From a virus: DNA of 41,185 nt. Position numbers and translations under genes: made by a program. Shown one piece after another: positions 4,278 to 35,631 of the stretch (its first letter is position 1; each line of letters starts with the position of its first letter). The stretch is taken from the IMG/VR virus record IMGVR_UViG_3300027737_000005, positions 1-41,185 of that record. One strand, written 5' to 3'. The notes below the pieces were generated by a model. The model worked only from the letters and a program-made list of their open reading frames with translations. It searched no databases and was not told the DNA's origin.

Positions 4278-4751
4278 CTAAAATAGTGCTAACCACTCAA
4301 GAATAACAAATCCGCTTGTGATTGTAGGCGATCCGGCACCCTCTGTCACTTGAATATACGTAGAATCTATATAAATGTTTACCTGATTCGTCACATTCAC
4401 CACACTTACAAAAGGAAGTGGATACCAATAAGTGCCGTCCGTAAATGTTCCATATATTCTTGTAAATCCTCCAAACTCTGCGAAATCAATTCCATGAGGA
4501 TAAGGGCCTTCCCCATCAATCGGATAAATTTGTCTCAATGTCTGCTGAGATTGTGTCGAGCCTTCGATATACCATTTCTCCCCTGTGACAACAGAAAAAT
4601 TGGCTGGAAATATTCCTATAGTTCTCGTATTGACCTTATCTGCAATATCAATATAGGATCTGTCCATTTCCACGGACAAGGTCTTAAGATCCTCGTTAGG
4701 AAAATTTCTCTGAGCCCTTAGATAGGGAACTTTAAGTGGCGATATCGTCAT
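4278..4751 (-). CDS. structural protein (157 aa)
   Basis: ORF overlaps the upstream stop by 4 nt (4748-4751), suggesting translational coupling. Confidence 0.55.
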   Translation of the reverse strand: MTISPLKVPYLRAQRNFPNEDLKTLSVEMDRSYIDIADKVNTRTIGIFPANFSVVTGEKWYIEGSTQSQQTLRQIYPIDGEGPYPHGIDFAEFGGFTRIYGTFTDGTYWYPLPFVSVVNVTNQVNIYIDSTYIQVTEGAGSPTITSGFVILEWLALF

Positions 4752-7396
4752 GCTAAATGAGGTCCTGGATGTATTGTAAGCTGTATTCCATGCAATGTAA
4801 TTTCACTTGTCGCGTACGTCAGATTTCTCATCTGAGCATCACTTAATGTAATTCCTATCTGCACTGAGTCTCCGATCATACTCGCATTAAATCTATGCCA
4901 TATTTGTTCTTGCGTAGATGCCGTTGGCATCTGAAGATTGGTATTAGCCGGCGTCAATCCCAGATTTGTACTCTCAGGGCATGTGTAGAGTAATTGCGAA
5001 TACACAAGACCATTGGGAGTTCCACTATTCAATGGATCATTCCAAGCATTCGTCGAATCCTGGCTCAAATATATATTCAAGGTCACTTGACCTATTGACG
5101 TTGTATCTAGAAGATATTTTTGCAGAGCTAATCTTAACTGCTTTCCTTGTTCCCAATAAAATGGGAATTGCTTTGTCTGCAGAATGGGCTGACAAAGCCT
5201 TGTGAAAGTCCCAAGTCCAAGATATGTTCCCGATGGAAAGGAAGCGTCGATAGTAAATGTATTCGCTGTTGGGCTTGCTCTCGTTCCTGTATTCGTGACA
5301 ATCGCTATAATACCGTTCAAAGCCGTAGTTCCGAGGCATCCTTGGATATAGATATAATCGCCTACCTCTACACAATGATTGATTGATGTTATTTGAGTAA
5401 ATCCTCCACTATTGGAAATGGCCTGTATTGTACCCGACGGGGCTTCTGATGTGCTATCACCGTCTTTGATAAGCACATATCCTTGAGGATTTCCAACAAT
5501 AATATCTGTAAATAGAGGTGAGTTACTTCCGCTGTTCCAAGGAGCTCTCCATGCTAACCAACTGCTATATCCTAGTGTAAGCCAGGACTTTTTACTCTGT
5601 GGCCTGTAGCGGCCATGTGAGGTGTAATTTTCATAAAATACTGCCCATGTATTGTCTCGATAATTGAAAAGGAATGTCCTCGTGGGAAATTTCCATGAGC
5701 TATCGTTATACGGGAATGAGAAATAGATCCATTCTCTAAAGAAATCTCTGATGGCGTTAACACGTTGTACACCGAAGTTTAACGATTGAATCTGAAAAAC
5801 GCTGTCTGGGATATCCAGATCAATCCTCTGAGAACTCTGCTGATCTGTCATTGCAATTCCATATTGGCCTATATCTATCGCTCCCCTATCCAATGTGATC
5901 GATGAAAATGTTGCCGATGAAGGAAGTTCCGAATTAATCGTAAAGAAAAGAAATGGCTGTAGATCGTTTCCTGAATAGACAAATCTTGTCTTTCTTCCAT
6001 CCCCTCCGAATCCAATGATTAAAACATCTTCGTTGTTGCTTACTGTGATGATAGGTTGGGCTAATCCTGCAGATAGATAGCCGCCCTTGCCAGCCTGATC
6101 CACATAGTAGGCCGTGACATCATAAGTCTGGTTGATTGGTACTAAAGCATTATAGTATGGCGTTCCATTCCAACTCCAAATGACTACATCCTGAAGCGTT
6201 ATTGGTCCTCCTGTACTTGTCTGAATGACTGGATTTAGGAAAAGCAGTCTATCCTTAAAAGGAACGATCATGAGGCAGCCGACTAGATAGTAGATGCCGA
6301 AGGGCGTATTCTCTATAGATGTGCCGACAGCGGTCAAGGGAGGGGCAAAATTCACCCATCCAAGACCTGTACCCGTTGGCAGTCCCGTCGCACTCGTAGG
6401 ATCGCCATCATACCACCGGATTCCATCTTGTCCTGAAAGAGCACTAGTCAGCATCTGGAAGATGCCATTATTGTTTAAAGTTTCTCCAGTCGTATCTACA
6501 GGCACAGTGAATTGTGTGCTATTCAATCGAGTGATCTGAAATGCCTGAAGATTCAAAGAACTTGCGTTTGCCCCTGTAATCTCATTGAAAAATACCCAAT
6601 CCCCGGTAATGAGACCGTGTGGAGATGCTGTCTGAATCTTAGTAGGGTTTTGCTCTGTGATAATGCTAATATTCTGAAAATGAAATCCCGGATTTCCATT
6701 AGTCGCCCAAAGAGCTCCTGAATAATTCGTCGTCCAAAACTGCTGGTAATCCTGGCCATTCCATATGAAAGGATTATTCGTCGTTTTGTAGTAATTCACA
6801 TTGTAGAATAGAGGGGAGCCACCTTGATTGATCTGATAACTATACGTCGTATCAAAAGTTAGTAAAAGAGGGTATAAAGGATTTACAGTAGAAGATGGAG
6901 ACGAGAGCTTAACAAAATCTCTTAAACCCATAACCGGAAGGCCTGGATAATAGTCGAAAAATCCCGTAAGTGTACTAGAGCCTCCTCCTGTTATCGTGAC
7001 TGCTCCTGTAGCATAATTGATCGTTCCGGTACCTCCTCCGCTTCCTGTAAGCGTTCCGTCAGGTGTAGATGGGTCTGTATATGTTTGCCCTCCTACAATG
7101 AAACTAATAGTCCCAGGAACTATCGTAGATGAGCTTTCCAGCGACAAGGCCGTAATGAGATTAGCTGCTCCTACTGAAAGAGTTATCGGCCCATATTGCC
7201 ATGGAAGAGCACCCGTTGATACTATTTGAATCTGCACAGCAAGCCGTCCTAAAGGCAGCGTACCGCGCTTTTTCTTTACTCTTCCTCGCCATGCATAAAA
7301 ATTGTAAAGCAGCGGAAAAGAATTGTTATCGATGTTAAATGCTGTTCTATCAGTTTTTTGACCTCCCGAGGTTCCTATAAAGATTTGATCTGCCAT
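4748..7396 (-). CDS. large tail protein, tail tubular B/nozzle-like (882 aa)
   Basis: Size and position downstream of the capsid gene match podovirus nozzle genes. The segment PFKDRLLFLNPVIQTS recalls T7 gp12 FRNRLGFLSGENIILS. An HGLITGDWVFF module is present. Confidence 0.5.
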   Translation of the reverse strand: MADQIFIGTSGGQKTDRTAFNIDNNSFPLLYNFYAWRGRVKKKRGTLPLGRLAVQIQIVSTGALPWQYGPITLSVGAANLITALSLESSSTIVPGTISFIVGGQTYTDPSTPDGTLTGSGGGTGTINYATGAVTITGGGSSTLTGFFDYYPGLPVMGLRDFVKLSSPSSTVNPLYPLLLTFDTTYSYQINQGGSPLFYNVNYYKTTNNPFIWNGQDYQQFWTTNYSGALWATNGNPGFHFQNISIITEQNPTKIQTASPHGLITGDWVFFNEITGANASSLNLQAFQITRLNSTQFTVPVDTTGETLNNNGIFQMLTSALSGQDGIRWYDGDPTSATGLPTGTGLGWVNFAPPLTAVGTSIENTPFGIYYLVGCLMIVPFKDRLLFLNPVIQTSTGGPITLQDVVIWSWNGTPYYNALVPINQTYDVTAYYVDQAGKGGYLSAGLAQPIITVSNNEDVLIIGFGGDGRKTRFVYSGNDLQPFLFFTINSELPSSATFSSITLDRGAIDIGQYGIAMTDQQSSQRIDLDIPDSVFQIQSLNFGVQRVNAIRDFFREWIYFSFPYNDSSWKFPTRTFLFNYRDNTWAVFYENYTSHGRYRPQSKKSWLTLGYSSWLAWRAPWNSGSNSPLFTDIIVGNPQGYVLIKDGDSTSEAPSGTIQAISNSGGFTQITSINHCVEVGDYIYIQGCLGTTALNGIIAIVTNTGTRASPTANTFTIDASFPSGTYLGLGTFTRLCQPILQTKQFPFYWEQGKQLRLALQKYLLDTTSIGQVTLNIYLSQDSTNAWNDPLNSGTPNGLVYSQLLYTCPESTNLGLTPANTNLQMPTASTQEQIWHRFNASMIGDSVQIGITLSDAQMRNLTYATSEITLHGIQLTIHPGPHLA

Positions 7397-11615: not shown

Positions 11616-13133
11616 TTATGGACCTCCCAACGAGCTAAGTCTAGTTGAGACGATATTTCGGATAGCCGTATCTTGTGTGATTGCTTGCGCTTGCGCAAAC
11701 TTCACCGCAAGCGTCGCATTCTGAGCCATCATTCCTGAATAATACGGATCGCGATAAATCAAGTTCATGGAGTATCCATCCTGATTTATATGCGTGATGG
11801 CTTGCTTGCCTATTACTGTATTGTAATAGACATCACTGCCATTGGCAGATGCTCCACGTGCAACAGGCGCTTCTGAGCTAGTCAGAATACGGATGTTGAA
11901 CACAGAACCATACTCAGAAGGCAATGCCGAAGAATTATTTGGATAATTCCATTGGTTAATGAAACCAGAACCTGTCAGCGCGTCGAAATCGGTTTGTAGT
12001 TCCGTTGACGACAGCATGAAATATGCCGAACGCACAGGACCAGTACCGAATCTGTCCATGCCTTCGATACCCGACATGAACTTGTAAGCATTGTTCGTGT
12101 CAAGAGTCGTTGCTACCAAGCTAAAGTCAGACACTCCAAGATTAGTTGGATTGTCCCCGTTAGAGCCGCCACCAGCATTAATCTGAGAAGCTGCAGAAAC
12201 GACGTAGTCGCGCAAAATTAACAATCTGTTACCCCACTTTCGTGTGGATAGGTCATTTCTGCCTATCTCCAGACCTTTCGTCGTCTGGTTCGGACTGTCG
12301 CATCCCATTTCTGGGCCTCTTCACTCAGTCTCTCACGGTGGCCTAAAGCCTTCCGCCCTGTCGGCATGCCTTTCGGGTTAGCCTTCCAAGTCAATCAGAA
12401 GAGGTTTATCGAGGACTTAATCTTAATCCTCGGCTTGCCGCATTGCAACAGCCAGTCTTTCGCTGACCCATGCAAGTACCATTTATGCAGCAGCTAAGAG
12501 GGCGTACTCATTACCCTCCTGGTCCTGGAGAATACATTTTTGTTACTCCACATAGTGGGGACAAGTCATTTCTGCTTGTCTCTGCGACTTTCTTTATTCT
12601 CGCAGATCGGACTATCGCTTAACTTTTCAGTTCCTACCCGCTTTAGTCTCTCACGGCCTATAAACCAACAAAGCATTAAATAAGAATGATTATCAAATTC
12701 TTTCAATCTTTCTATATATTCTTTCGTAAGTTCCATAGTTCCGCCTTATCACCCTGTCGGGCTTCTAAGTCAATTAGGGCTGGTTTATAGCAGGCTAAAT
12801 TCTCATCCACCTGCTCATTGATTATGCAGCCAGTCTATCGCATAACCAATTGTTTCGGCACTGGCGACCACCGAAAAAAGCCATCTGGGCGTCTATGATA
12901 TCCCTTTGAGGGACCTGCGCGGGTGGATCTATCCCGCTGTTACCCAACTGAATGGTGGGTGGTGTTAGCGCCCTCGGGCGCATAAATCTAGCAGTCGTGC
13001 CGCCGTTTGCTGGCATACTGATCTTATCGCACACAGTGATGTAGTTCATCGTGGGCGTAGGAACATAGAGCATTGCGGGAGCTAACGATTGTAGAATGAG
13101 GGGACCTAGGTTCCCTGTAGTCGTAATCGACAT
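11616..13133 (-). CDS. major capsid protein (HK97-fold type), split by two group I introns: exon 1 is 13133..12870, a micro-exon ends at 12513 and starts between 12534 and 12550, exon 3 starts 12234-12225 and ends at 11616
   Basis: Exon 1 reads PANGGTTARFMRPRALTPPTIQLGNSGIDPPAQVPQRDIIDAQMAFFG. Exon 3 reads LLILRDYVVSAASQ...NLIYRDPYYSGMMAQNATLAVKF, which looks like a capsid C-terminus. The gap carries ribozyme cores and no ORF. Confidence 0.75.
12226..12512 (-). ncRNA. group I self-splicing intron, capsid intron 2, ORF-less (3' end at 12226, 12232, 12233 or 12235)
   Basis: In minus orientation: P1 AGGAGGGU/GCCCUCUU with a closing U-G pair, P3 CCUCUUC/GAAGAGG, R-like GUGAGAGACUG (12336..12326), P8 CCCA-GAAA-UGGG (12314..12303), J8/7-P7 GCGACAGUCCG (12301..12291), P9 CCAGAC/GUCUGG. 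Confidence 0.8.
12535..12869 (-). ncRNA. group I self-splicing intron, capsid intron 1, ORF-less, with an AT-rich ~85-nt insertion in the P6 region (3' end at 12535, 12548 or 12551)
   Basis: P1 UUUCGGU/GCCGAAA with a closing U-G pair, R-like GUGAGAGACUAA (12654..12643), P8 AACU-GAAA-AGUU (12632..12621), GCGAUAGUCCG (12618..12608), P9 UCUGCGA/UCGCAGA. Homologous to the other two introns. Confidence 0.8.
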
Positions 13134-13290
13134 GCTAACCTCATAGGTTGCATGTTATCGGGATATGGGGATCGGTGGACGACAAGCCTCCTACGTCCGT
13201 TCTCGGCCATATCTATGCAGTAACGCTACTTCTGCGAAGCGGTGCACATAACGCTTGTGCTTACGTGGAATCCATTATGCAAAAAACTAT

Positions 13291-13454: not shown

Positions 13455-14759
13455 CTATAAAACCTGAGATGCTTGCTTCTCAGCATCATTAATGGAGATC
13501 TCACCTGATAAAAGCTTGGAAAGAAGGCTATCGCGTATAGTTGCAAGGGTATGTGATTCGCGCACATTTGCTACTAGCCTTTTTCGGAATGGAAGTATTA
13601 ATTGATAGTAATGTTCTATAAGGGCACTTGGTGGGATAACAAGGTTCGTTCCCACAATAACCCTTGCGTTCATGTTGGCTTGAACTGAGCCTCCCTTTGC
13701 TCCTTCGGCATAATTCTTATAGAGGTCTGATTTCAGGAAACCATAAATAAAGTAGCCCCAAGCTTTCGATTCTGGCTTAAGACGAACAAGATATGAAGCA
13801 AAAATCGCATCCATATCCTCCTCGATAATGGCTGATTTTCCAGGGTCTGCCATTCTAGCAACGACCAAATCACCAACAGTGAGCGTGTACCTACTCTTTA
13901 AATCTCTATCAATATCGCAATGGGGTACGGTACTCCAATCAATCCAGTTCTTCTTATTGATATCCATGACTCTCAGAAACTTTGGGCCAGCATTCTCTGC
14001 ATGCGCACTCGTTGTGTAACCGTACTGAGTAGAGCAGATTTCGGATAATTTTTTTATCTTCCATCCTTTGGGGATTAAATTCAGTTTGCAATCTTCGAAA
14101 CCATCAGGGAAAAGAGCAGCTATCTCATCGCTCATGTTTAAGGGTTTGCAACTTTTAGCTTTAGCATAAACAGGATCGAAGTCGAGAAACCAGCTTTTGA
14201 AGATCACTTGGGCCATTGTATCCAGAGTTTCATTCACCTGTCTGTTGAGTTCGATCATTTCGTCCAACCTTCCCAATATTGCTGCAATGGCTTTTTGCTC
14301 TTCAATACTCTCAGGTAGACTTACTTTGAAATTTTTAAGAGCTGTTCCCGAAATTTCTTTAAAAGTAGTTCCGCCAGCAACATTTTCAATAAATTTTGTG
14401 TAAAATTTGAGAAGATAAAATAAAAATTCTGAGTTTGCATTTTTTTTGGGAATTAGGCTTTTGAAGCCTTGATTTGTTGCAAGATCCTGTCCAGCAATTG
14501 CCACATAACCTATTGGTGCGCGAGAACTAAAAAGAACAGATCCCTTCGGAAGTAAACGAGCACCGGAACTGTTCAAACCTGAAGTAGAAATGTTTCTCTC
14601 ACCAAAATAAATATATCTATTTTGATAATTTGAGAGATCTTTAGGGGTAATCCACGGTATGTTTCCTGAGAAAAAGTTGGGGTTTTTTGTACTGGGAGTA
14701 CTGCCTCCAACAATATCAGCAATATCATTTATACAAACATTTTTCCAGCCTTTACGCAT
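13455..14759 (-). CDS. hsdS: type I restriction-modification specificity subunit HsdS (434 aa, two TRDs)
   Basis: Two TRD starts (NDIADIVGGSTPST and LSEICSTQYGYTTS) and conserved coiled-coil spacers (EEQKAIAAILGRLDEMIELN and LATIRDSLLSKLLSGEI). Confidence 0.9.
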   Translation of the reverse strand: MRKGWKNVCINDIADIVGGSTPSTKNPNFFSGNIPWITPKDLSNYQNRYIYFGERNISTSGLNSSGARLLPKGSVLFSSRAPIGYVAIAGQDLATNQGFKSLIPKKNANSEFLFYLLKFYTKFIENVAGGTTFKEISGTALKNFKVSLPESIEEQKAIAAILGRLDEMIELNRQVNETLDTMAQVIFKSWFLDFDPVYAKAKSCKPLNMSDEIAALFPDGFEDCKLNLIPKGWKIKKLSEICSTQYGYTTSAHAENAGPKFLRVMDINKKNWIDWSTVPHCDIDRDLKSRYTLTVGDLVVARMADPGKSAIIEEDMDAIFASYLVRLKPESKAWGYFIYGFLKSDLYKNYAEGAKGGSVQANMNARVIVGTNLVIPPSALIEHYYQLILPFRKRLVANVRESHTLATIRDSLLSKLLSGEISINDAEKQASQVL

Positions 14760-16302
14760 ACCCGAGTCCCTCCAAGTTGCGCTGAATTTGCTTTGTTAGC
14801 TGCTGTGCTTTATCCATCTGGGCATAGAGTTTTCCTACCAGCGCCTGCATTTGGCTTTCAAATGGTATGGTATCTTCATCGCTGATCTCTGTGCCCACGT
14901 ATCGACCAGGTGTTAAGATGTGCCCATTCTGTCGCACCTCGTCAATTGTAGCTGCCTTGCAGAAGCCTGGGATATTATCGTATGTTCCAATTCCGTTTTG
15001 ACCCCGCCAGGAATGATAGGTCATCGCAATACGATTTATTTCTTCATCGGAAAAAACCTTCTGAGTTCTTGTGGCAAGTTGGCCTAGTTGACGAGCATCA
15101 ATGAAGAGGATCTCATCGCGACGGTCCTTAAGTTTGGTTTTCCCCGACTTGCCGTTAGAGCGATTCTTTGCTAGGATCCAGAGACACGCGGGAATCTGGA
15201 CTCCAAAAAACAACTGACTTGGAAGAGCCACCATACAATCGACCAGATTATTCTCTACGAGAGCTTTGCGGATCTCGCCCTCCCCGGCGGTATTTGAGGC
15301 CATTGATCCGTTGGCAAGGACAATGCCAGCTACACCATTAGGTGTAAGATGATGAATGATGTGCTGTATCCAGGCGAAGTTTGCATTGCCTTCGGGTGGG
15401 ATTCCATACTTCCAGCGAGGGTCTTCTCTTAGTAGCTCGCCCGACCATTCTTTGATATTGAAAGGAGGATTCGCTAGGACATAGTCGAAGCGAAGATCTG
15501 GTAGGGCATCTTTTAGAAGAGTCCCTTCACTATTCCAGTGAATTTCGGCTTCTACACCTCTGATAGCGAGATTCATTTTAGCAAGTTTCCAAGTGGTGTT
15601 ATTGCGCTCTTGCCCATAGATAGCAATATCGCCAAGTTTTCCCTGGTATGCCGAGATCAGTTTCTCCGATTGGACGAAGAATCCACCTGTTCCGCAGCAA
15701 GGATCATAGACACGCCCATGTAAGGGCTCTATCATTTCGACGAGGGTGCGGACAATAGAAGCAGGTGTGTAGAAATCGCCGCCGCGCTTTCCCTCTTTAC
15801 CTGCAAATTCAGCGAGAAAGTACTCGTAAATTCTACCTAAAAAGTCGAAATCTGCCTCGCTATGTGAAAGCTTGATATTAGTGAAGAGGTCAACTAGTCG
15901 CCCTAACATAGTTGGATTCAAACTTGCTTTGCCATATTCCTTGTGAAGAACACCCTTTAACGCAACGTTCTCGCTTTCTAAGGCGCGCATCGCCTCGTCA
16001 ATCTTTTTGCCAATGTCGGGCAAACGAGCTTGTGATGCTAAGGTGGACCATCGAGCAGCTTCTGGCACCCAAAAAACATTTTCAGCTTGATACTCCTCGG
16101 GATCCTCTGCGTTGGCTAAGTCGTTTTTCAAAAGTTCGGCTTGCTTCTTTTCAAAAGCTTCTGAAAGATAACGTAGAAAAACCAGTCCAAGAACAATGTG
16201 TTTATATTCTGCAGGATCCATAGCTCCTCGGAGCTTTTCTGCGGAATCAATCAAGGAAGCTTCAAGCGATATGTCCTCTTTTTGGTTCTTTCTGGTTTTC
16301 AT
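14752..16302 (-). CDS. hsdM: type I restriction-modification N6-adenine DNA methyltransferase HsdM (516 aa)
   Basis: HsdM N-terminal domain (AEYKHIVLGLVFLRYLSEAF), motif I DPCCGTGGFF, motif IV LANPPFN. The 3' end overlaps hsdS by 8 nt. Confidence 0.9.
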   Translation of the reverse strand: MKTRKNQKEDISLEASLIDSAEKLRGAMDPAEYKHIVLGLVFLRYLSEAFEKKQAELLKNDLANAEDPEEYQAENVFWVPEAARWSTLASQARLPDIGKKIDEAMRALESENVALKGVLHKEYGKASLNPTMLGRLVDLFTNIKLSHSEADFDFLGRIYEYFLAEFAGKEGKRGGDFYTPASIVRTLVEMIEPLHGRVYDPCCGTGGFFVQSEKLISAYQGKLGDIAIYGQERNNTTWKLAKMNLAIRGVEAEIHWNSEGTLLKDALPDLRFDYVLANPPFNIKEWSGELLREDPRWKYGIPPEGNANFAWIQHIIHHLTPNGVAGIVLANGSMASNTAGEGEIRKALVENNLVDCMVALPSQLFFGVQIPACLWILAKNRSNGKSGKTKLKDRRDEILFIDARQLGQLATRTQKVFSDEEINRIAMTYHSWRGQNGIGTYDNIPGFCKAATIDEVRQNGHILTPGRYVGTEISDEDTIPFESQMQALVGKLYAQMDKAQQLTKQIQRNLEGLGYA

Positions 16303-18380: not shown

Positions 18381-20357
18381 TTACCTCATTTGGGCCATCT
18401 GGCCCTGTTGTTGATTCTGATTATTCATACTGCCCATTATCTGTGCAATAAATCTTTTAGAAGCTTCGCTCTTCTCGATATCTTTTCGCGCATTCTTTTC
18501 TGTTTCTTCTTCGTCAAATTTAATAGAGTCAAGGTTATTAGATTGTAAGAATGTTTCCAACTCTCCAAATTTCTGAATGGTTTCCAGAAGCATCGTAAGA
18601 GCCTCCATCTTTTCTTTTGTCGCTAGGCTATGGTTCTTGCTTATCTCGCTCATACGCTCTTCAAACAATCCTACATTGCTTTCACTTCTAGAATCCCTCT
18701 CACGCGCCTGGGAGAGCAGATTATGGATCCTTGCCATAAGCTCTTTCATCTTCATTTCTTCAACAGTGTGCTTGATATTAATCTCTTCTGACTGCACTGC
18801 TTGCATCTGCTGCTCTTGTTGTTGCAAAATCTGCACAATCTCTGCTTTTCCAGTGATATTGAGCTTAGGAATAATCTGAGAAGGTGAGAACACTTCGCGC
18901 CCAAAGGCCGCATTCATATCCATCATCTGCTGAGCTTGCAAGTTTTGTTGCGTCGGAGTCAAGTCACTCTCTTCGACAATACACTGAAACTTGCTAAATA
19001 TCTTACTGTAGAAATATGGAGAAGGCTCCTCGCCTATTAACAATCCAACTTTCTCAGCACTCCAATTGTTTAAGGCTATCTGCAAAAGACGTTCTCCAAG
19101 AAGTTTATCTGAAAAGTCCCACTGATCAAAATATTTCTGAAAAACCATCAAATTAGCAGCTGATTTCAACATCATCGTCAGACTACTTATCTGCTTATCA
19201 TTTTGTCCAGACCAATTCTCGAGATTAATTCCCGCTGTTTGCCATATCAAATTACCCATCTGCTCCGCAAGAGCCATATCGCTCTCTGGTACTCCAGAAG
19301 GGATAATTTTTTCACAATCCGTCATCTCGTAGCCTTCATTGATGATGACGTCCCAGCCCTGTCCAGACTTCTTAAGATTGTCTTCATTTGCAACAGCTCC
19401 AACTTTTCGCTTCCAACCCGCATTGATTGTCGCAGCTGTGATATCGTTGTTTGTGATGATCTTATAATTATAAAGAAATTGAGGATCGCGCATAGTCCGA
19501 ATAAGCCCACGAACGCGCAGATCGTAATAATTGTTATGCGGTTCGTAGTTCCAGTAATAGGGAATGAAAGGACATCCATCGAAACCAAGAGGATTATCGC
19601 CCTGAAACATCAACTGATCGTTCAGAACCACAGCAAGTTTCCAGCACGGTGCCTCTACGGTTACTTCTTCCATGTCCGGAATACTATATAAAATCTGCTC
19701 CAAGTGGCCATCATCCCCAGCAAAGTCAAAGAATTGATTCCTAGTACGACTATAAAGCCTTTTTTTCTTCCGTTTCCATTTGTACCAGACATATGAGAGC
19801 ACCATTAAATCGTTTCTCGCCATATTGTAGTTTTCCGGAAGGAAATAAAAACTTCCGTACCTCTGAGGCGTTCCAGCCATCGGCACAATAGCCTCTAACT
19901 TATCAGGAAAACGGCTTTCCGCCTCTTTTTTGCTGATGTATTCTTGACACCATACAAACTGAGCATCGCTCATATCAGGGCTTCTAAAATATGGATCTAC
20001 CAAAAACGCATTATATTCCCACAACTTGAGCTTCAGCTCTCCTTGAGCCTGATCATCTCCTGTATAGTCTAAATATGGCTGTAGAAGTACCATACCGGTG
20101 ATCGCCGACTGTTCTTTGGCTTGCGATTTTGTCTCATGAATCATCCCTTTGTTCGCCACATGCGTAATCAATTTTGTGTACTGGTCCGTCGTCTGCGGAT
20201 CCGCCCCCTCCGTCGGCACATAACTAAAATTTTTCCGATGCTGCCTCTCACACCCCGTAAGCATATTAATAGGCTGCTGGCAGATGTTAAAGTAGTACTG
20301 CTGAAACGATGTCGTAGGGCTAAAATTGAAATACCGATTCACAAACGTCTGGGCTTT
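18381..20357 (-). CDS. portal protein, main exon
   Basis: About 650 aa with a portal-like N-region (YYFNICQQPINMLTGCERQHRKNFSYVPTEGADPQTTDQYTKL, which parallels the P22 gp1 layout) and a C-terminal Q-rich coiled coil. It lies downstream of terL. The frame is open back to 20357. Confidence 0.8.
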   Translation of the reverse strand, partial: KAQTFVNRYFNFSPTTSFQQYYFNICQQPINMLTGCERQHRKNFSYVPTEGADPQTTDQYTKLITHVANKGMIHETKSQAKEQSAITGMVLLQPYLDYTGDDQAQGELKLKLWEYNAFLVDPYFRSPDMSDAQFVWCQEYISKKEAESRFPDKLEAIVPMAGTPQRYGSFYFLPENYNMARNDLMVLSYVWYKWKRKKKRLYSRTRNQFFDFAGDDGHLEQILYSIPDMEEVTVEAPCWKLAVVLNDQLMFQGDNPLGFDGCPFIPYYWNYEPHNNYYDLRVRGLIRTMRDPQFLYNYKIITNNDITAATINAGWKRKVGAVANEDNLKKSGQGWDVIINEGYEMTDCEKIIPSGVPESDMALAEQMGNLIWQTAGINLENWSGQNDKQISSLTMMLKSAANLMVFQKYFDQWDFSDKLLGERLLQIALNNWSAEKVGLLIGEEPSPYFYSKIFSKFQCIVEESDLTPTQQNLQAQQMMDMNAAFGREVFSPSQIIPKLNITGKAEIVQILQQQEQQMQAVQSEEINIKHTVEEMKMKELMARIHNLLSQARERDSRSESNVGLFEERMSEISKNHSLATKEKMEALTMLLETIQKFGELETFLQSNNLDSIKFDEEETEKNARKDIEKSEASKRFIAQIMGSMNNQNQQQGQMAQMR

Positions 20358-20650
20358 CTGTTACTTTTGTGACCTATCTCTAGGCGGGGTTCCCTCTTCG
20401 GAGATCCCTCTCCATATTACTATGGAGTTCAGACTATCGCTTCACCTTGCGGTGTCCTCTCACTTAGTCGTTCACGGTCCCTTTCGGGTTCCGCCTTGTC
20501 TTCCCATAGGGAGGTCCAAGTCAATCAGAGAAGATTTAAACAGGGCCCAATTTTCAAAAAATTACTTAACCCTGCGTAAAATAAAGTGTCAATATTAGAT
20601 TGATTCCAGCGCTACTCACTTTATTTACTAACAGTCCCGCTTTCATATTA
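20358..20650 (-). ncRNA. group I self-splicing intron at the 5' end of the portal gene, ORF-less
   Basis: P1 AACAGUCU/GGACUGUU with a U-G pair at the splice site (U20651), 12-bp P2 GUAAAUAAAGUG/CACUUUAUUUUAC, P3 UCUUCUC/GAGAGGA, GUGAACGACUAAG (20475..20463), P8 CACC-GCAA-GGUG (20454..20443), GCGAUAGUCUG (20440..20430), P9 CUCCAUA-GUAA-UAUGGAG. Confidence 0.8.
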
Positions 20651-20785: not shown

Positions 20786-20932
20786 CTATGACCTTTTTAT
20801 AACATCGTATCCATATTCACTCAAGAATTCTTTGCACCACTTCAATTTATCATCTTTCCTACATTGCTTACACGCTGGTTTGAGAGCCTTTTCGCTTAGA
20901 ATCATTTCACATGAAATACATTTGTTGGGCAT
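20786..20932 (-). CDS. small zinc-ribbon-like protein (48 aa)
   Basis: TAAGGAGG RBS then ATG. MPNKCISCEMILSEKALKPACKQCRKDD carries CxxC...CxxC. Confidence 0.55.
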   Translation of the reverse strand: MPNKCISCEMILSEKALKPACKQCRKDDKLKWCKEFLSEYGYDVIKRS

Positions 20933-21024
20933 GATGTCAACCTCCTTAGTTGTCCTAATGAAATGCAAGCCAGGCGGTAGGAATCCGCTTTTCGAGTGCC
21001 CTCTAGGCTTGTGCAAACATTATA

Positions 21025-35038: not shown

Positions 35039-35100
35039 GGAAAGGAAAGAACTGGAAGGGACAGGAAAGGACAGGAAGGGAGGGGAAAGCAATGGTTTTA
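35039..35100 (+). repeat. polypurine pentamer array copy 5: (ANNGG)x~10 + AAAGCAATGGTTTTA
   Basis: Read directly; mini-ORF ATG GTT TTA TGA. Confidence 0.85.
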
Positions 35101-35161
35101 TGAAATATAAAGAAATTTTAATTAAAGTAAAATGCCCAGAATGCTTTAGAGGAGAGAAATA

Positions 35162-35410
35162 ATGGATTGGTACCACATTTTAGGAATAATTGTCGGCAAT
35201 GCTGCGATTTTTATACCTATGTTTTTTTGGCTACGTACCGAGGCGAATTCGGATAGACGACAGATGCAGGATACGGCCGCAGCGGATAGAAGAGATCTTT
35301 TGCAGATTATAAGAGAAATTCAAGCTGAAATGAAAGATTTCCATAGCCGCCTTGAGCGAATAGATATTGAGTTCAAGGGCTATTTGATTCAAGAGGCAAA
35401 GAAGCGATAG
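35162..35410 (+). CDS. small TM plus coiled-coil protein, 'KDFHGRL' family member (82 aa)
   Basis: MDWYHILGIIVGNAAIFIPMFFWLRTEANSDRRQ...IIREIQAEMKDFHSRLERIDIE. Confidence 0.6.
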   Translation: MDWYHILGIIVGNAAIFIPMFFWLRTEANSDRRQMQDTAAADRRDLLQIIREIQAEMKDFHSRLERIDIEFKGYLIQEAKKR

Positions 35411-35420
35411 CGCCTATCAA

Positions 35421-35445
35421 AGTGGCGGTCATAACGGCCGCCACT
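35421..35445. terminator. hairpin between convergent operons (bidirectional terminator candidate)
   Basis: AGTGGCGG-N9-CCGCCACT between the plus gene ending at 35410 and the minus gene ending at 35449. Confidence 0.5.
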
Positions 35446-35448
35446 ATG

Positions 35449-35631
35449 TTAATATTCATGCGCAGAACGAGCACGCTTCTTGAGGTCTTTGGCGGCTGAG
35501 CGCGCTTCTTTTTCTTCTACTTTCTCATGCTTCTTTTTGGTACCTTTAGAATGGGCAGCTTCTTTGGAATAGTGTTTGGCATCTTTCATGAGTTTGCCGG
35601 CACATTTTTTCATTATTTTTTTGTGGACCAC
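35449..35631 (-). CDS. small lysine-rich basic protein (60 aa)
   Basis: ORF sharing nt 35631 with the upstream gene. Confidence 0.45.
   Translation of the reverse strand: MVHKKIMKKCAGKLMKDAKHYSKEAAHSKGTKKKHEKVEEKEARSAAKDLKKRARSAHEY

Follow-up and report, generated by a model that had tools for sequence, protein, structure and literature searches.

Group I introns of bacteria and phages, represented by T4 td, nrdB and sunY, Twort orf142, and the Azoarcus and Anabaena tRNA introns (Rfam RF00028), are among the closest described relatives of the elements reported here. Twort orf142 reportedly carries three introns in one gene. That a group I core can act on a foreign P1 duplex is well established in vitro, and composite introns occur in nature as the twin-ribozyme introns of Didymium and the group II/III twintrons of Euglena, the parts of a twintron each having, or being thought to have, their own splicing determinants. 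Degenerate group I introns of 56–81 nucleotides (nt), with a putative P7 and a terminal U, have been described in the fungal small-subunit ribosomal DNA (SSU rDNA) of Phialophora (PaSSU) and its relatives; larger introns are their presumed source, and flanking RNA is believed to be required for their activity (PMC3160393). Here we analyze IMG/VR virus record IMGVR_UViG_3300027737_000005, positions 1 to 41,185 (this whole stretch is called the window below), in which the major capsid gene and the portal gene, both on the minus strand, are interrupted by long and by very short intervening sequences. In the best reading, there are three composite splicing units, two in the capsid pre-mRNA and one in the portal pre-mRNA, each made up of a group I intron without an open reading frame (ORF) and a mini-intron lying 26–54 nt upstream of it. 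The pairing, covariation and co-occurrence patterns make it fairly probable, in our judgment, that the mini-introns are non-autonomous and would be spliced by the ribozyme of the neighboring full intron.

Four insertions and three micro-exons in the capsid gene

The minus-strand ORF starting at 13133 reads MSITTT...AQMAFFG, and a second ORF takes up at ...LLILRDYVVSAAS and ends at 11616. A preliminary description of this DNA had placed the break in the capsid frame after ...AQMAFFG at U12870, which the present analysis bears out, with resumption at LILRDY (12221). When the two halves were concatenated, 1292 homologues were retrieved (best E-value ~1e-166), most of them 322–325 amino acids (aa) long, several named ‘N4-gp56 family major capsid protein’ and some with PF25209. 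The 3’ part alone (exon 5) matches PHROG 1357, major head protein, while a tblastn search of the capsid protein against cultured phages returned a single record, at 29% identity.

The homologues are ~33 residues longer than the two ORFs joined. Uninterrupted homologues read FFG-TGCIINEQV-ILQDQEG-VLAWVSERLAVAMRQAED-LILRDY, with the middle stretch nearly invariant, and all three middle pieces are encoded within the gap. The gap therefore comprises four insertions and three micro-exons, arranged as follows, in order of transcription.

12870 to 13133, minus strand: capsid exon 1 (M1...FFG88), from the ORF and colinearity with uninterrupted homologues (P0001 and others)
12835 to 12869, minus strand: mini-intron m1, 35 nt, terminal G12835, no catalytic core; its removal restores FFG|TGC
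12809 to 12834, minus strand: micro-exon 2, 26 nt, TGCIINEQV with the V codon split, from homologue alignment and codon differences
12535 to 12808, minus strand: group I intron A, 274 nt, terminal G12535, from homologue alignment and our own model R1
12513 to 12534, minus strand: micro-exon 3, 22 nt, (V)ILQDQEG, ending in U12513 of GGU, from homologue alignment
12480 to 12512, minus strand: mini-intron m2, 33 nt, with an in-frame UAA, terminal G12480, from homologue alignment
12426 to 12479, minus strand: micro-exon 4, 54 nt, encoding VLAWVSERLAVAMRQAED, from homologue alignment and codon differences
12222 to 12425, minus strand: group I intron B, 204 nt, terminal G12222, from homologue alignment and R1
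11616 to 12221, minus strand: capsid exon 5 (LILRDY...GGP and stop), from the ORF and colinearity with homologues

Removal of all four insertions yields a 323-aa protein colinear with the 322–325-aa homologues. This spliced product matches TIGR04387 (NCBIfam capsid_maj_N4) with 80.1 bits against a cut-off of 60, over profile positions 23–315 of 324, which confirms the earlier assignment to a major capsid gene and places it in the N4-gp56 family. A Pfam scan of the correctly spliced product gave no match. Gene callers had rendered the gene as pieces of 103, 56 and 230 aa.

Strong purifying selection acts on the protein sequence of the micro-exons. Micro-exon 4 occurs as 11 distinct DNA sequences that encode one peptide (373 synonymous versus 0 nonsynonymous codon differences), and the codon differences among loci in micro-exon 2 are 639 synonymous versus 32 nonsynonymous. 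It follows that the intervening sequences have to be taken out, or passed over, with precision. An ENA contig of 41,227 bp contains the identical interrupted gene, as does, to the extent of the contig, an independent Logan assembly, so that an assembly artefact can be set aside.

These borders change the exon–intron map proposed in the preliminary description, which had two introns and one micro-exon of 22–38 nt. The splice sites chosen there joined the cores of the long introns to the P1 hairpins of the mini-introns, swallowing micro-exons 2 and 4, and the predicted junction peptides FFG/YSPGPGG/CNR... and FFG/(W)SNKNVFSRTRR/... are contradicted by the homologue alignment. The hairpins UUUCGGU/GCCGAAA and AGGAGGGU/GCCCUCUU do exist, with a U·G pair at the exon end, but they belong to the mini-introns; conversely, AGCAGG/CCUGCU and CGAGGA/UCCUCG, described as P2-type hairpins, are the true P1 helices of the long introns, whose real 5’ splice sites are CAGGU|G (12809|12808) for A and GAGGAU|U (12426|12425) for B. 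The unusual feature of the gene is the core-less mini-intron upstream of each long intron, rather than two introns ~30 nt apart.

The long introns form a group I family outside Rfam

Introns A and B are clearly homologous (72% mean column identity) and share the blocks CCGUGAGAGACU and GCGA(U/C)AGUCCGA; the combined core motif occurs twice in the window, compared with no occurrence in 100 shuffles. The two related elements noticed at the outset, with an R-like GUGAGAGACU(A/G), GCGA(U/C)AGUCCG and covarying P8, P9 and P9.1, are thus as first described, and the view that they are two tandem homologous group I introns without ORFs stands. Intron A has P1 AGCAGGU/GCCUGCU, P10 AUUCUC/GAGAAU, P7 GACUA (in 12637–12652)/UAGUC (in 12605–12618) and the 3’ end ...AAAAAUG|. 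Intron B has P1 CGAGGAU/GUCCUCG, of which the 5’ strand is the last 7 nt of micro-exon 4, together with P10 UUAAUUU/AGAUUAA, P3 CCUCUUC/GAAGAGG, P7 GACUG/CAGUC and the 3’ end ...GAUUG|. The main difference between the two is an A/U-rich insertion of ~80 nt in the P6a hairpin of intron A (12660–12736, minus strand). A 56-aa ORF in intron A (12566–12736) has no PHROGs match and is probably spurious.

Exact matches to the core motif were found in more than 118 IMG/VR viral contigs, and a scan of GTDB genomes gave 6 matches, in unrelated metagenome-assembled genomes and genomes, which were uninformative as to the host. From 43 compact members of ~180–200 nt, an alignment was built and folded with RNAalifold, with P7 added manually. 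The family fold has the group I topology P3-[P4, P5, P6, P6a]-P7-P3’-P8-P7’-P9.1 with a P3/P7 pseudoknot. In this alignment 96.3% of the paired cells are complementary, versus 79.1% in shuffled alignments and 32–47% when the partners are slid, and compensatory changes occur at 24 of the 37 family pairs, including all seven in P3 and all four in P8. One P7 pair switches between A-U and G-C (36:7), at positions that the search pattern had left unlinked.

A covariance model made from the 43-member alignment, R1, detects intron B, which was in the seed, with 165 bits, and intron A, which was not, with 131.4 bits (E-value 2e-32). It also finds a third copy in the window, intron C of the portal gene, at 20360–20541 on the minus strand (122.5 bits, E-value 4e-30). 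Intron C has P1 CAGGGU/GCCCUG, the 3’ end ...GAAAG| and the core variant CCGUGAACGACUAAG...GCGAUAGUCUGA. All three introns have a U·G pair at the 5’ splice site, and their borders were fixed independently by homologue alignment.

The Rfam search for Intron_gpI suggested in the preliminary description gave no match in the whole window at the gathering score, nor in 11900–13200 at E ≤ 10. When 20 loci bearing the family were scanned with RF00028, no match fell on the family element; the sole match was a separate classical intron in one locus, L011. We accept A and B as group I introns on the strength of their predicted structure, though RF00028 does not recognize them. With the long introns, the group I class gains new members, from a family that escapes the curated Rfam model.

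In L011, the classical RF00028 intron (68.3 bits; 4783–4945, minus strand) lies ~100 nt upstream of the family member (4500–4681, minus strand), and introns of two types therefore stand in tandem in this locus. R1 also matches, with 101 bits, an unannotated region in the cultured Roseobacter phage CRP-118 (L291, OR420741.1, ~35056–35455), between two coding sequences (CDSs) annotated as ‘ribonucleotide reductase’. A split ribonucleotide reductase gene is a typical location of phage group I introns. CRP-118 is a possible laboratory model for the intron family.

A third composite unit in the portal gene

The gene split by intron C encodes a P22-type portal protein (P22_portal, E-value 8e-49). 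The listed 653-aa ORF (18381–20342) is the 3’ exon of the portal gene only, and the true start lies upstream of 20760. Three features precede that exon.

20612 to 20650, minus strand: mini-intron m3, 39 nt, terminal G, from homologue colinearity of the portal N-terminus
20569 to 20611, minus strand: portal micro-exon, 43 nt, encoding RWNQSNIDTLFYAG plus the first base of the next codon, from homologue colinearity
20354 to 20568, minus strand: group I intron C, 215 nt, of the same family as A and B, from R1

With m3 and C removed, the portal N-terminus is colinear and nearly identical with those of the uninterrupted L199, L214, L218 and L110. All three full introns of the window phage have a mini-intron partner. 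In another locus, L037, a 33-nt mini-intron occupies a different portal site, 29 nt upstream of a full intron.

Mini-introns carry a covarying P1/P10 guide and no catalytic core

Each mini-insertion comes directly after an exon U, has G as its last base and includes a guide sequence whose 3’ part pairs with the last 7–8 exon bases (P1), while the preceding 5–6 nt pair with the start of the next exon (P10). In m1, GCCGAAA of the guide sequence (12853..12864, minus strand) pairs with UUUCGGU of the exon (12870–12876) to form P1, with the U·G pair at the splice site, where the final base of exon 1, U12870, is the 5’ splice-site U; CCAGU of the guide pairs with ACUGG of the 3’ exon as P10. Both helices covary at this site, P1 reading UUUGGU/GCCAAA in L203, L207 and L213, and P10 reading ACAGG/CCUGU in L208 and L209. 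The guide sequence of m2 lies at 12496–12509, where GAGUAC pairs with GUACUU (P10) and GCCCUCUU with AGGAGGGU (P1). The portal mini-intron m3 follows a UCU codon and has P1 ACAGUCU/GGACUGU and P10 CGCU/AGCG.

Mini-introns recur at five sites in two genes. A splice-aware comparison of ~45 interrupted capsid genes, in which sites are numbered by nt of the spliced CDS, placed mini-insertions of 29–63 nt at three capsid sites (nt 264, 275 and 312); the other two sites are in the portal gene. Degenerate-codon patterns requiring 25–55 nt between FFG and TGCIINEQV, or between ILQDQEG and VLAW, matched 18 and 11 viral contigs, respectively, and the FFG pattern matched a further 56 metagenome contigs. 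Altogether, the m1 site (nt 264) carries an insertion of 29–63 nt in 22 IMG/VR loci and the 56 metagenome contigs, and the m2 site (nt 312) one of 30–49 nt in 12 loci. The Gly codon before the mini-intron is GGU in 22/22 and 12/12 of these, compared with 63/87 and 27/93 in uninterrupted genes. The recurrence extends to distant relatives: capsid genes ~45% identical to that of the window (L025, L095, L067 and L102) have a mini-intron at the equivalent of site 264, in which P1, P10 and a third helix, Px (see below), have fully covaried.

The pairings were evaluated in an anchored alignment of 28 distinct mini-introns from three sites. With the P1 register taken as the best complement in each sequence and the P10 register following from adjacency without optimization, 90.6% of the P1 and P10 cells are paired, versus 62.7% in shuffled sequences (reached in 0 of 500 shuffles) and 35–50% in slid registers. 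Compensatory changes were observed at 13 of the 14 pairs; the U·G pair is present in 28/28, and all end in G. The mini-introns contain no catalytic core, having 14–27 nt between guide and 3’ splice site and no match to R1 or Rfam, for which reason we do not class them as complete group I introns.

The capsid family is more generally a hotspot for intervening sequences (L217, L220, L209, L221 and others), many of 350–1270 nt with LAGLIDADG-type ORFs. Full-size insertions occupy >20 capsid sites, with up to seven insertions in one gene (L217). One capsid homologue in NCBI (P0099, 313 aa) lacks 13 residues, AQMAFFGTGCIIN, exactly around mini-intron site 264, a gap that may have arisen by natural deletion or through a faulty gene call at an insertion.

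The mini-intron tail pairs beside the P1 of the downstream full intron

The guide sequence of each mini-intron is followed by a tail of 14–27 nt. In m1, the tail segment AUUGGUUAUGCG (12839..12850) pairs with UGCAUAAUCAAU in micro-exon 2 (12817–12828), ending one base before the P1 strand of intron A; this helix, Px, has 12 bp in the minimum free energy (MFE) fold. In m2, GCUGCUGCAU (12485–12494) pairs with AUGCGGCAAGC in micro-exon 4 (12433–12443), abutting the P1 strand CGAGGAU of intron B, and in m3, GUAAAUAAAGUG (20617–20628) pairs with CACUUUAUUUUAC in the exon (20576–20588), ending one base before the P1 of intron C. Each of the three window units has an MFE fold in which P1(mini), Px and P1(full) form consecutive helices, with z-scores of −3.25 and −3.75 for the m1 and m2 units.

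The position of Px follows the full intron in loci where this lies farther downstream.

L210: full intron 102 nt away, tail/exon pairing CUUGUCUCA/UGAGACAAG
L048 (mini-intron at site 275): full intron 91 nt away, 8 bp tail/exon pairing
L202: full intron 96 nt away, CUCAUU/AAUGAG
L206: full intron 96 nt away, CUCAUC/GAUGAG
L200: full intron ~130 nt away, GAACC/GGUUC
L215: full intron ~130 nt away, GAUCC/GGAUC

The full-intron border in L200 and L215 was set by eye at ~nt 396. Compensatory changes in Px distinguish L202 from L206 and L200 from L215, and where the full intron lies at nt 302, the tail carries A, G or U opposite the exon Val codon GUU, GUC or GUA, respectively. The mean helix score of tails with the exon of their own locus is 7.55, versus 4.22 for shuffled tails (maximum 4.94), 4.31 for exons of other classes and 6.37 for other loci of the same class, with p ~0.0005 in a within-class permutation.

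A full-size insertion lies 26 to ~130 nt downstream of every mini-intron, in all IMG/VR loci and in 56/56 metagenome contigs. The start of a family-type intron is visible in all 56 of the latter, including 10 that are truncated, and most of the downstream introns checked in IMG/VR loci are detected by R1, some weakly. Full introns without mini-introns exist (L110 and L066). Since mini-introns always accompany a full intron, and full introns also occur alone, the dependence runs one way only. In L077 and L049, the insertion after micro-exon 2 shows no AUAAA-P3-UGAUUGACUUGG family start in its first 45 nt; its 5’ border, 290 or 296, is uncertain, and the insertion may carry an ORF in its P1 loop or represent another type of intron.

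Proposed mechanism

The insertions and their exact borders, the selection on the micro-exons, the covariation of P1, P10 and Px, the constant presence of a full intron downstream and the group I fold of the long introns stand as findings. From these arrangements we infer that the mini-introns would be removed at the RNA level by transesterification, with the neighboring core as the agent. The balance tips modestly towards a phage class of 29–63-nt mini-introns, defined by a P1/P10 guide, a tether helix and a terminal G, that would be excised in cis by the core of a neighbor. In that case, a single ribozyme would act on two substrate domains and take out two separate segments around a translated micro-exon.

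In the proposed pathway, the mini-intron (33–39 nt in the window) would keep only the substrate side of a group I intron, namely the P1/P10 guide, the terminal G and the Px tail. P1(mini), Px and P1(full) in series would correspond to P1-P2-P2.1 of an ordinary group I intron, followed by a junction (AUAAA) and P3...P9, and would place the P1/P10 domain of the mini-intron beside the P3–P9 core of the full intron. The core of the still-present full intron would first dock P1(mini), and exogenous G would cut the 5’ splice site of the mini-intron. Its terminal G would then enter the G-binding site, and the exons held by P10 would be ligated. Finally, the full intron would dock its own P1 and splice itself. 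Action in cis, before the full intron leaves, is proposed because Px sits on exon bases contiguous with P1(full).

Several points weigh against this pathway. The terminal G of the mini-intron lies in the Px loop upstream of the core, not after P9, and the second step needs an unusual topology. The literature yielded no natural group I core acting on a second P1/terminal-G domain. In short micro-exons (26 nt), the tail–exon helix is necessarily near the P1 of the full intron. Many of the loci are related, and independent events are therefore fewer than the counts for co-occurrence and covariation suggest. Neither the spliced protein, by exact look-up, nor the DNA of the E1-E2-E3 junction, by metagenome scan, was found in the collections searched. 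The Rfam group I model misses even the long introns; we do not take this failure against their group I fold, because the covariation and R1 support it.

Alternative explanations

The best-surviving alternative, although in our view an unlikely one, is action in trans, in which excised full introns from the same or other transcripts splice the P1/P10 hairpin and Px merely shapes local structure. The P1, P10 and terminal-G features would be the same as in the cis pathway, the three family introns of the phage could supply free ribozyme, and engineered group I ribozymes without a guide sequence of their own act on a separately supplied P1 duplex. Action in trans accounts less well for the placement of Px beside the P1 of the next full intron, up to ~130 nt off and with compensatory changes, which matters only before excision, and against it stands the finding that every mini-intron has a full intron downstream of it within one gene.

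We regard as less likely still that protein machinery, either an endonuclease with an RNA ligase or a LAGLIDADG maturase, recognizes the hairpin and removes the mini-introns while the neighboring intron merely travels along. One form of mini-intron, in L044, does contain a homing endonuclease ORF, and homing could co-convert a mini-intron and an intron 26–130 nt apart, giving co-occurrence without functional dependence. Most mini-introns, including the three of the window, have no ORF, and the window introns contain no endonuclease; the combination of U·G pair, P10 and terminal G is a hallmark specific to group I chemistry, and co-conversion leaves unexplained the compensatory changes between tail and exon at the P1 border of the full intron.

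Two further alternatives appear very improbable, and about equally so. The mini-introns might be autonomous minimal ribozymes like the fungal SSU rDNA introns, using only P1, P10 and a pairing with the 3’ exon. A 67-nt PaSSU intron splices in vitro, with P1, P7, P10 and an intron–3’ exon helix resembling Px (PMC3160393). In their 29–39 nt the phage elements contain neither a P7 nor a G-binding site, and P1, P10 and Px are their only structures; autonomy leaves both the strict dependence on a downstream intron and the aim of the tail at its P1 unexplained. Alternatively, ribosomes might bypass unspliced insertions in the manner of T4 gene 60, where a 50-nt gap likewise belongs to a homing-endonuclease cassette. 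Both capsid insertions follow a Gly codon (GGU) within a hairpin, comparable to GGA in gene 60; their lengths of 29–63 nt are similar to that gap, and one lineage is linked to a homing endonuclease. A matched landing codon is missing, as the insertions end in UAG, AAG, AUG, UUG or ACG and not in GGN, and at site 312 the sole nearby GGU is out of frame. No stop follows the take-off codon (m1 continues GGU|GGU and m2 GGU|AAU), and the codon before the portal mini-intron is not a Gly codon. Covariation of P10 with the first 5–6 exon bases, the terminal G and the pairing of the tail with a distant exon have no role in bypass. Bypass was rejected after take-off and landing codons had been checked at all sites.

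The two remaining explanations are scarcely tenable. The two-intron model of the preliminary description, with 5’ sites at the UUUCGGU and AGGAGGGU hairpins, can point to the U·G pairs in both hairpins, but it is refuted by the homologue alignment: it drops 34 residues nearly invariant in homologues and substitutes an unrelated peptide, it puts TGCIINEQV and VLAWVSERLAVAMRQAED, which are under strong purifying selection, inside a supposed intron, and it overlooks the separate P1 and P10 that the long introns form at CAGGU| and GAGGAU|; its first-junction product has no Pfam match, and Pfam and PHROGs scans were empty for exon 1 and for the spliced model. If the capsid and portal genes were pseudogenes decaying in a defective element, with the insertions as scars never removed, one would expect neither the lack of other frameshifts or stops, nor the perfect conservation of the micro-exon protein across 11–18 DNA variants, nor the presence of the architecture in dozens of full-length ~40-kb contigs from many samples.

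Origin of the mini-introns

The L044 form, at site 312, is a mini-intron of 950 nt whose P1 loop contains a 292-aa double-motif LAGLIDADG ORF (Pfam LAGLIDADG_1 and LAGLIDADG_3), with merely 16 nt from the guide sequence to the 3’ splice site. Several mini-introns of 44–49 nt retain remnants of an L044-type loop. The L044 lineage, at least, has the look of a vehicle for a homing endonuclease, its own core either absent from the start or long missing, and the short forms look like derivatives that lost the ORF. In evolutionary terms, we infer from these comparisons that the mini-introns may be non-autonomous elements parasitizing a neighboring ribozyme.

Other features of the window

The sole Rfam match in the window at the gathering score is an int-alpA RNA at 20944–21013 on the minus strand (41.3 bits, E-value 2.6e-5), just upstream of a 76-aa Cys-rich ORF (20786–21016). 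Immediately upstream of the capsid gene, at 13455–16302 on the minus strand, are genes for an HsdS-like protein (434 aa, Methylase_S) and an HsdM-like protein (516 aa, HsdM_N/N6_Mtase). These Hsd genes lie inside an apparently complete ~41 kb phage genome, and no restriction subunit was noticed nearby. An identical HsdS is found on 16 contigs from several samples.

Discussion

If the cis pathway is correct, it would provide, as far as we found, the first natural case of a group I ribozyme acting on a second, separately encoded substrate domain, which has so far been an in vitro engineering result, and the first non-autonomous group I intron. A homing endonuclease could then colonize an essential gene without a ribozyme, by means of a ~30-nt RNA adaptor, provided that a self-splicing intron lies within ~130 nt. 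The mini-introns would be parasites of a selfish ribozyme, adding a further layer of parasitism between mobile elements. Micro-exons of 22–54 nt and intervening sequences of 30–60 nt are invisible to gene callers, and because Rfam misses the family, annotations probably present many phage capsid, portal and ribonucleotide reductase genes as broken or split. At ~300 nt, the composite units are suited to ribozyme biochemistry and structural work. We came across no account of phages in which core-less mini-introns are paired with full introns; our coverage of the literature is incomplete, and a prior description is possible.

With the known group I introns of bacteria and phages, introns A, B and C share the U·G pair in P1, P10 and the terminal G, as well as the P3/P7 pseudoknot, P4–P6, P8, P9 and R/S-like AGACUA...AUAGUC. 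At ~200 nt, the family is similar in size to the smallest bacterial group I introns, and it likewise resides in essential phage genes. It differs in that its P4–P6 region has a conserved sequence of its own, UGAUUGACUUGGAAG...ACAAGGCGGAAG, in the absence of an RF00028 match, and in that each window intron has a core-less mini-intron upstream.

The mini-introns resemble the PaSSU type in being very short, in having lost the core while keeping P1 and P10, and in an intron–3’ exon helix (PM in the fungal introns, similar to Px). A putative P7 is retained in the fungal introns, which lie in rRNA and lack a full intron nearby, whereas the phage elements, of 29–63 nt, have no P7, end in G, interrupt protein-coding genes and are always followed by a full intron at whose P1 the tail is aimed. 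Given the absence of P7, the terminal G and the protein-coding hosts, they are not members of that type. They are like the T4 gene 60 bypass element (mobA cassette) as short insertions in an essential phage gene, with a Gly-codon hairpin in the capsid gene and a link to a homing endonuclease, but they lack matched take-off and landing codons or a stop, and the U·G pair, P10, terminal G and tether helix are features of splicing. Compared with engineered trans-acting ribozymes and with twintrons, the second substrate domain in the phage would be natural, tethered in cis, located upstream and parted from the core by a translated micro-exon. The likeness to MITEs (miniature inverted-repeat transposable elements), SINEs (short interspersed nuclear elements) and satellite elements is one of analogy only: all would be minimal elements with recognition sites that depend on the machinery of an autonomous relative, with the difference that the mini-introns would borrow an RNA-splicing ribozyme and not a transposition protein.

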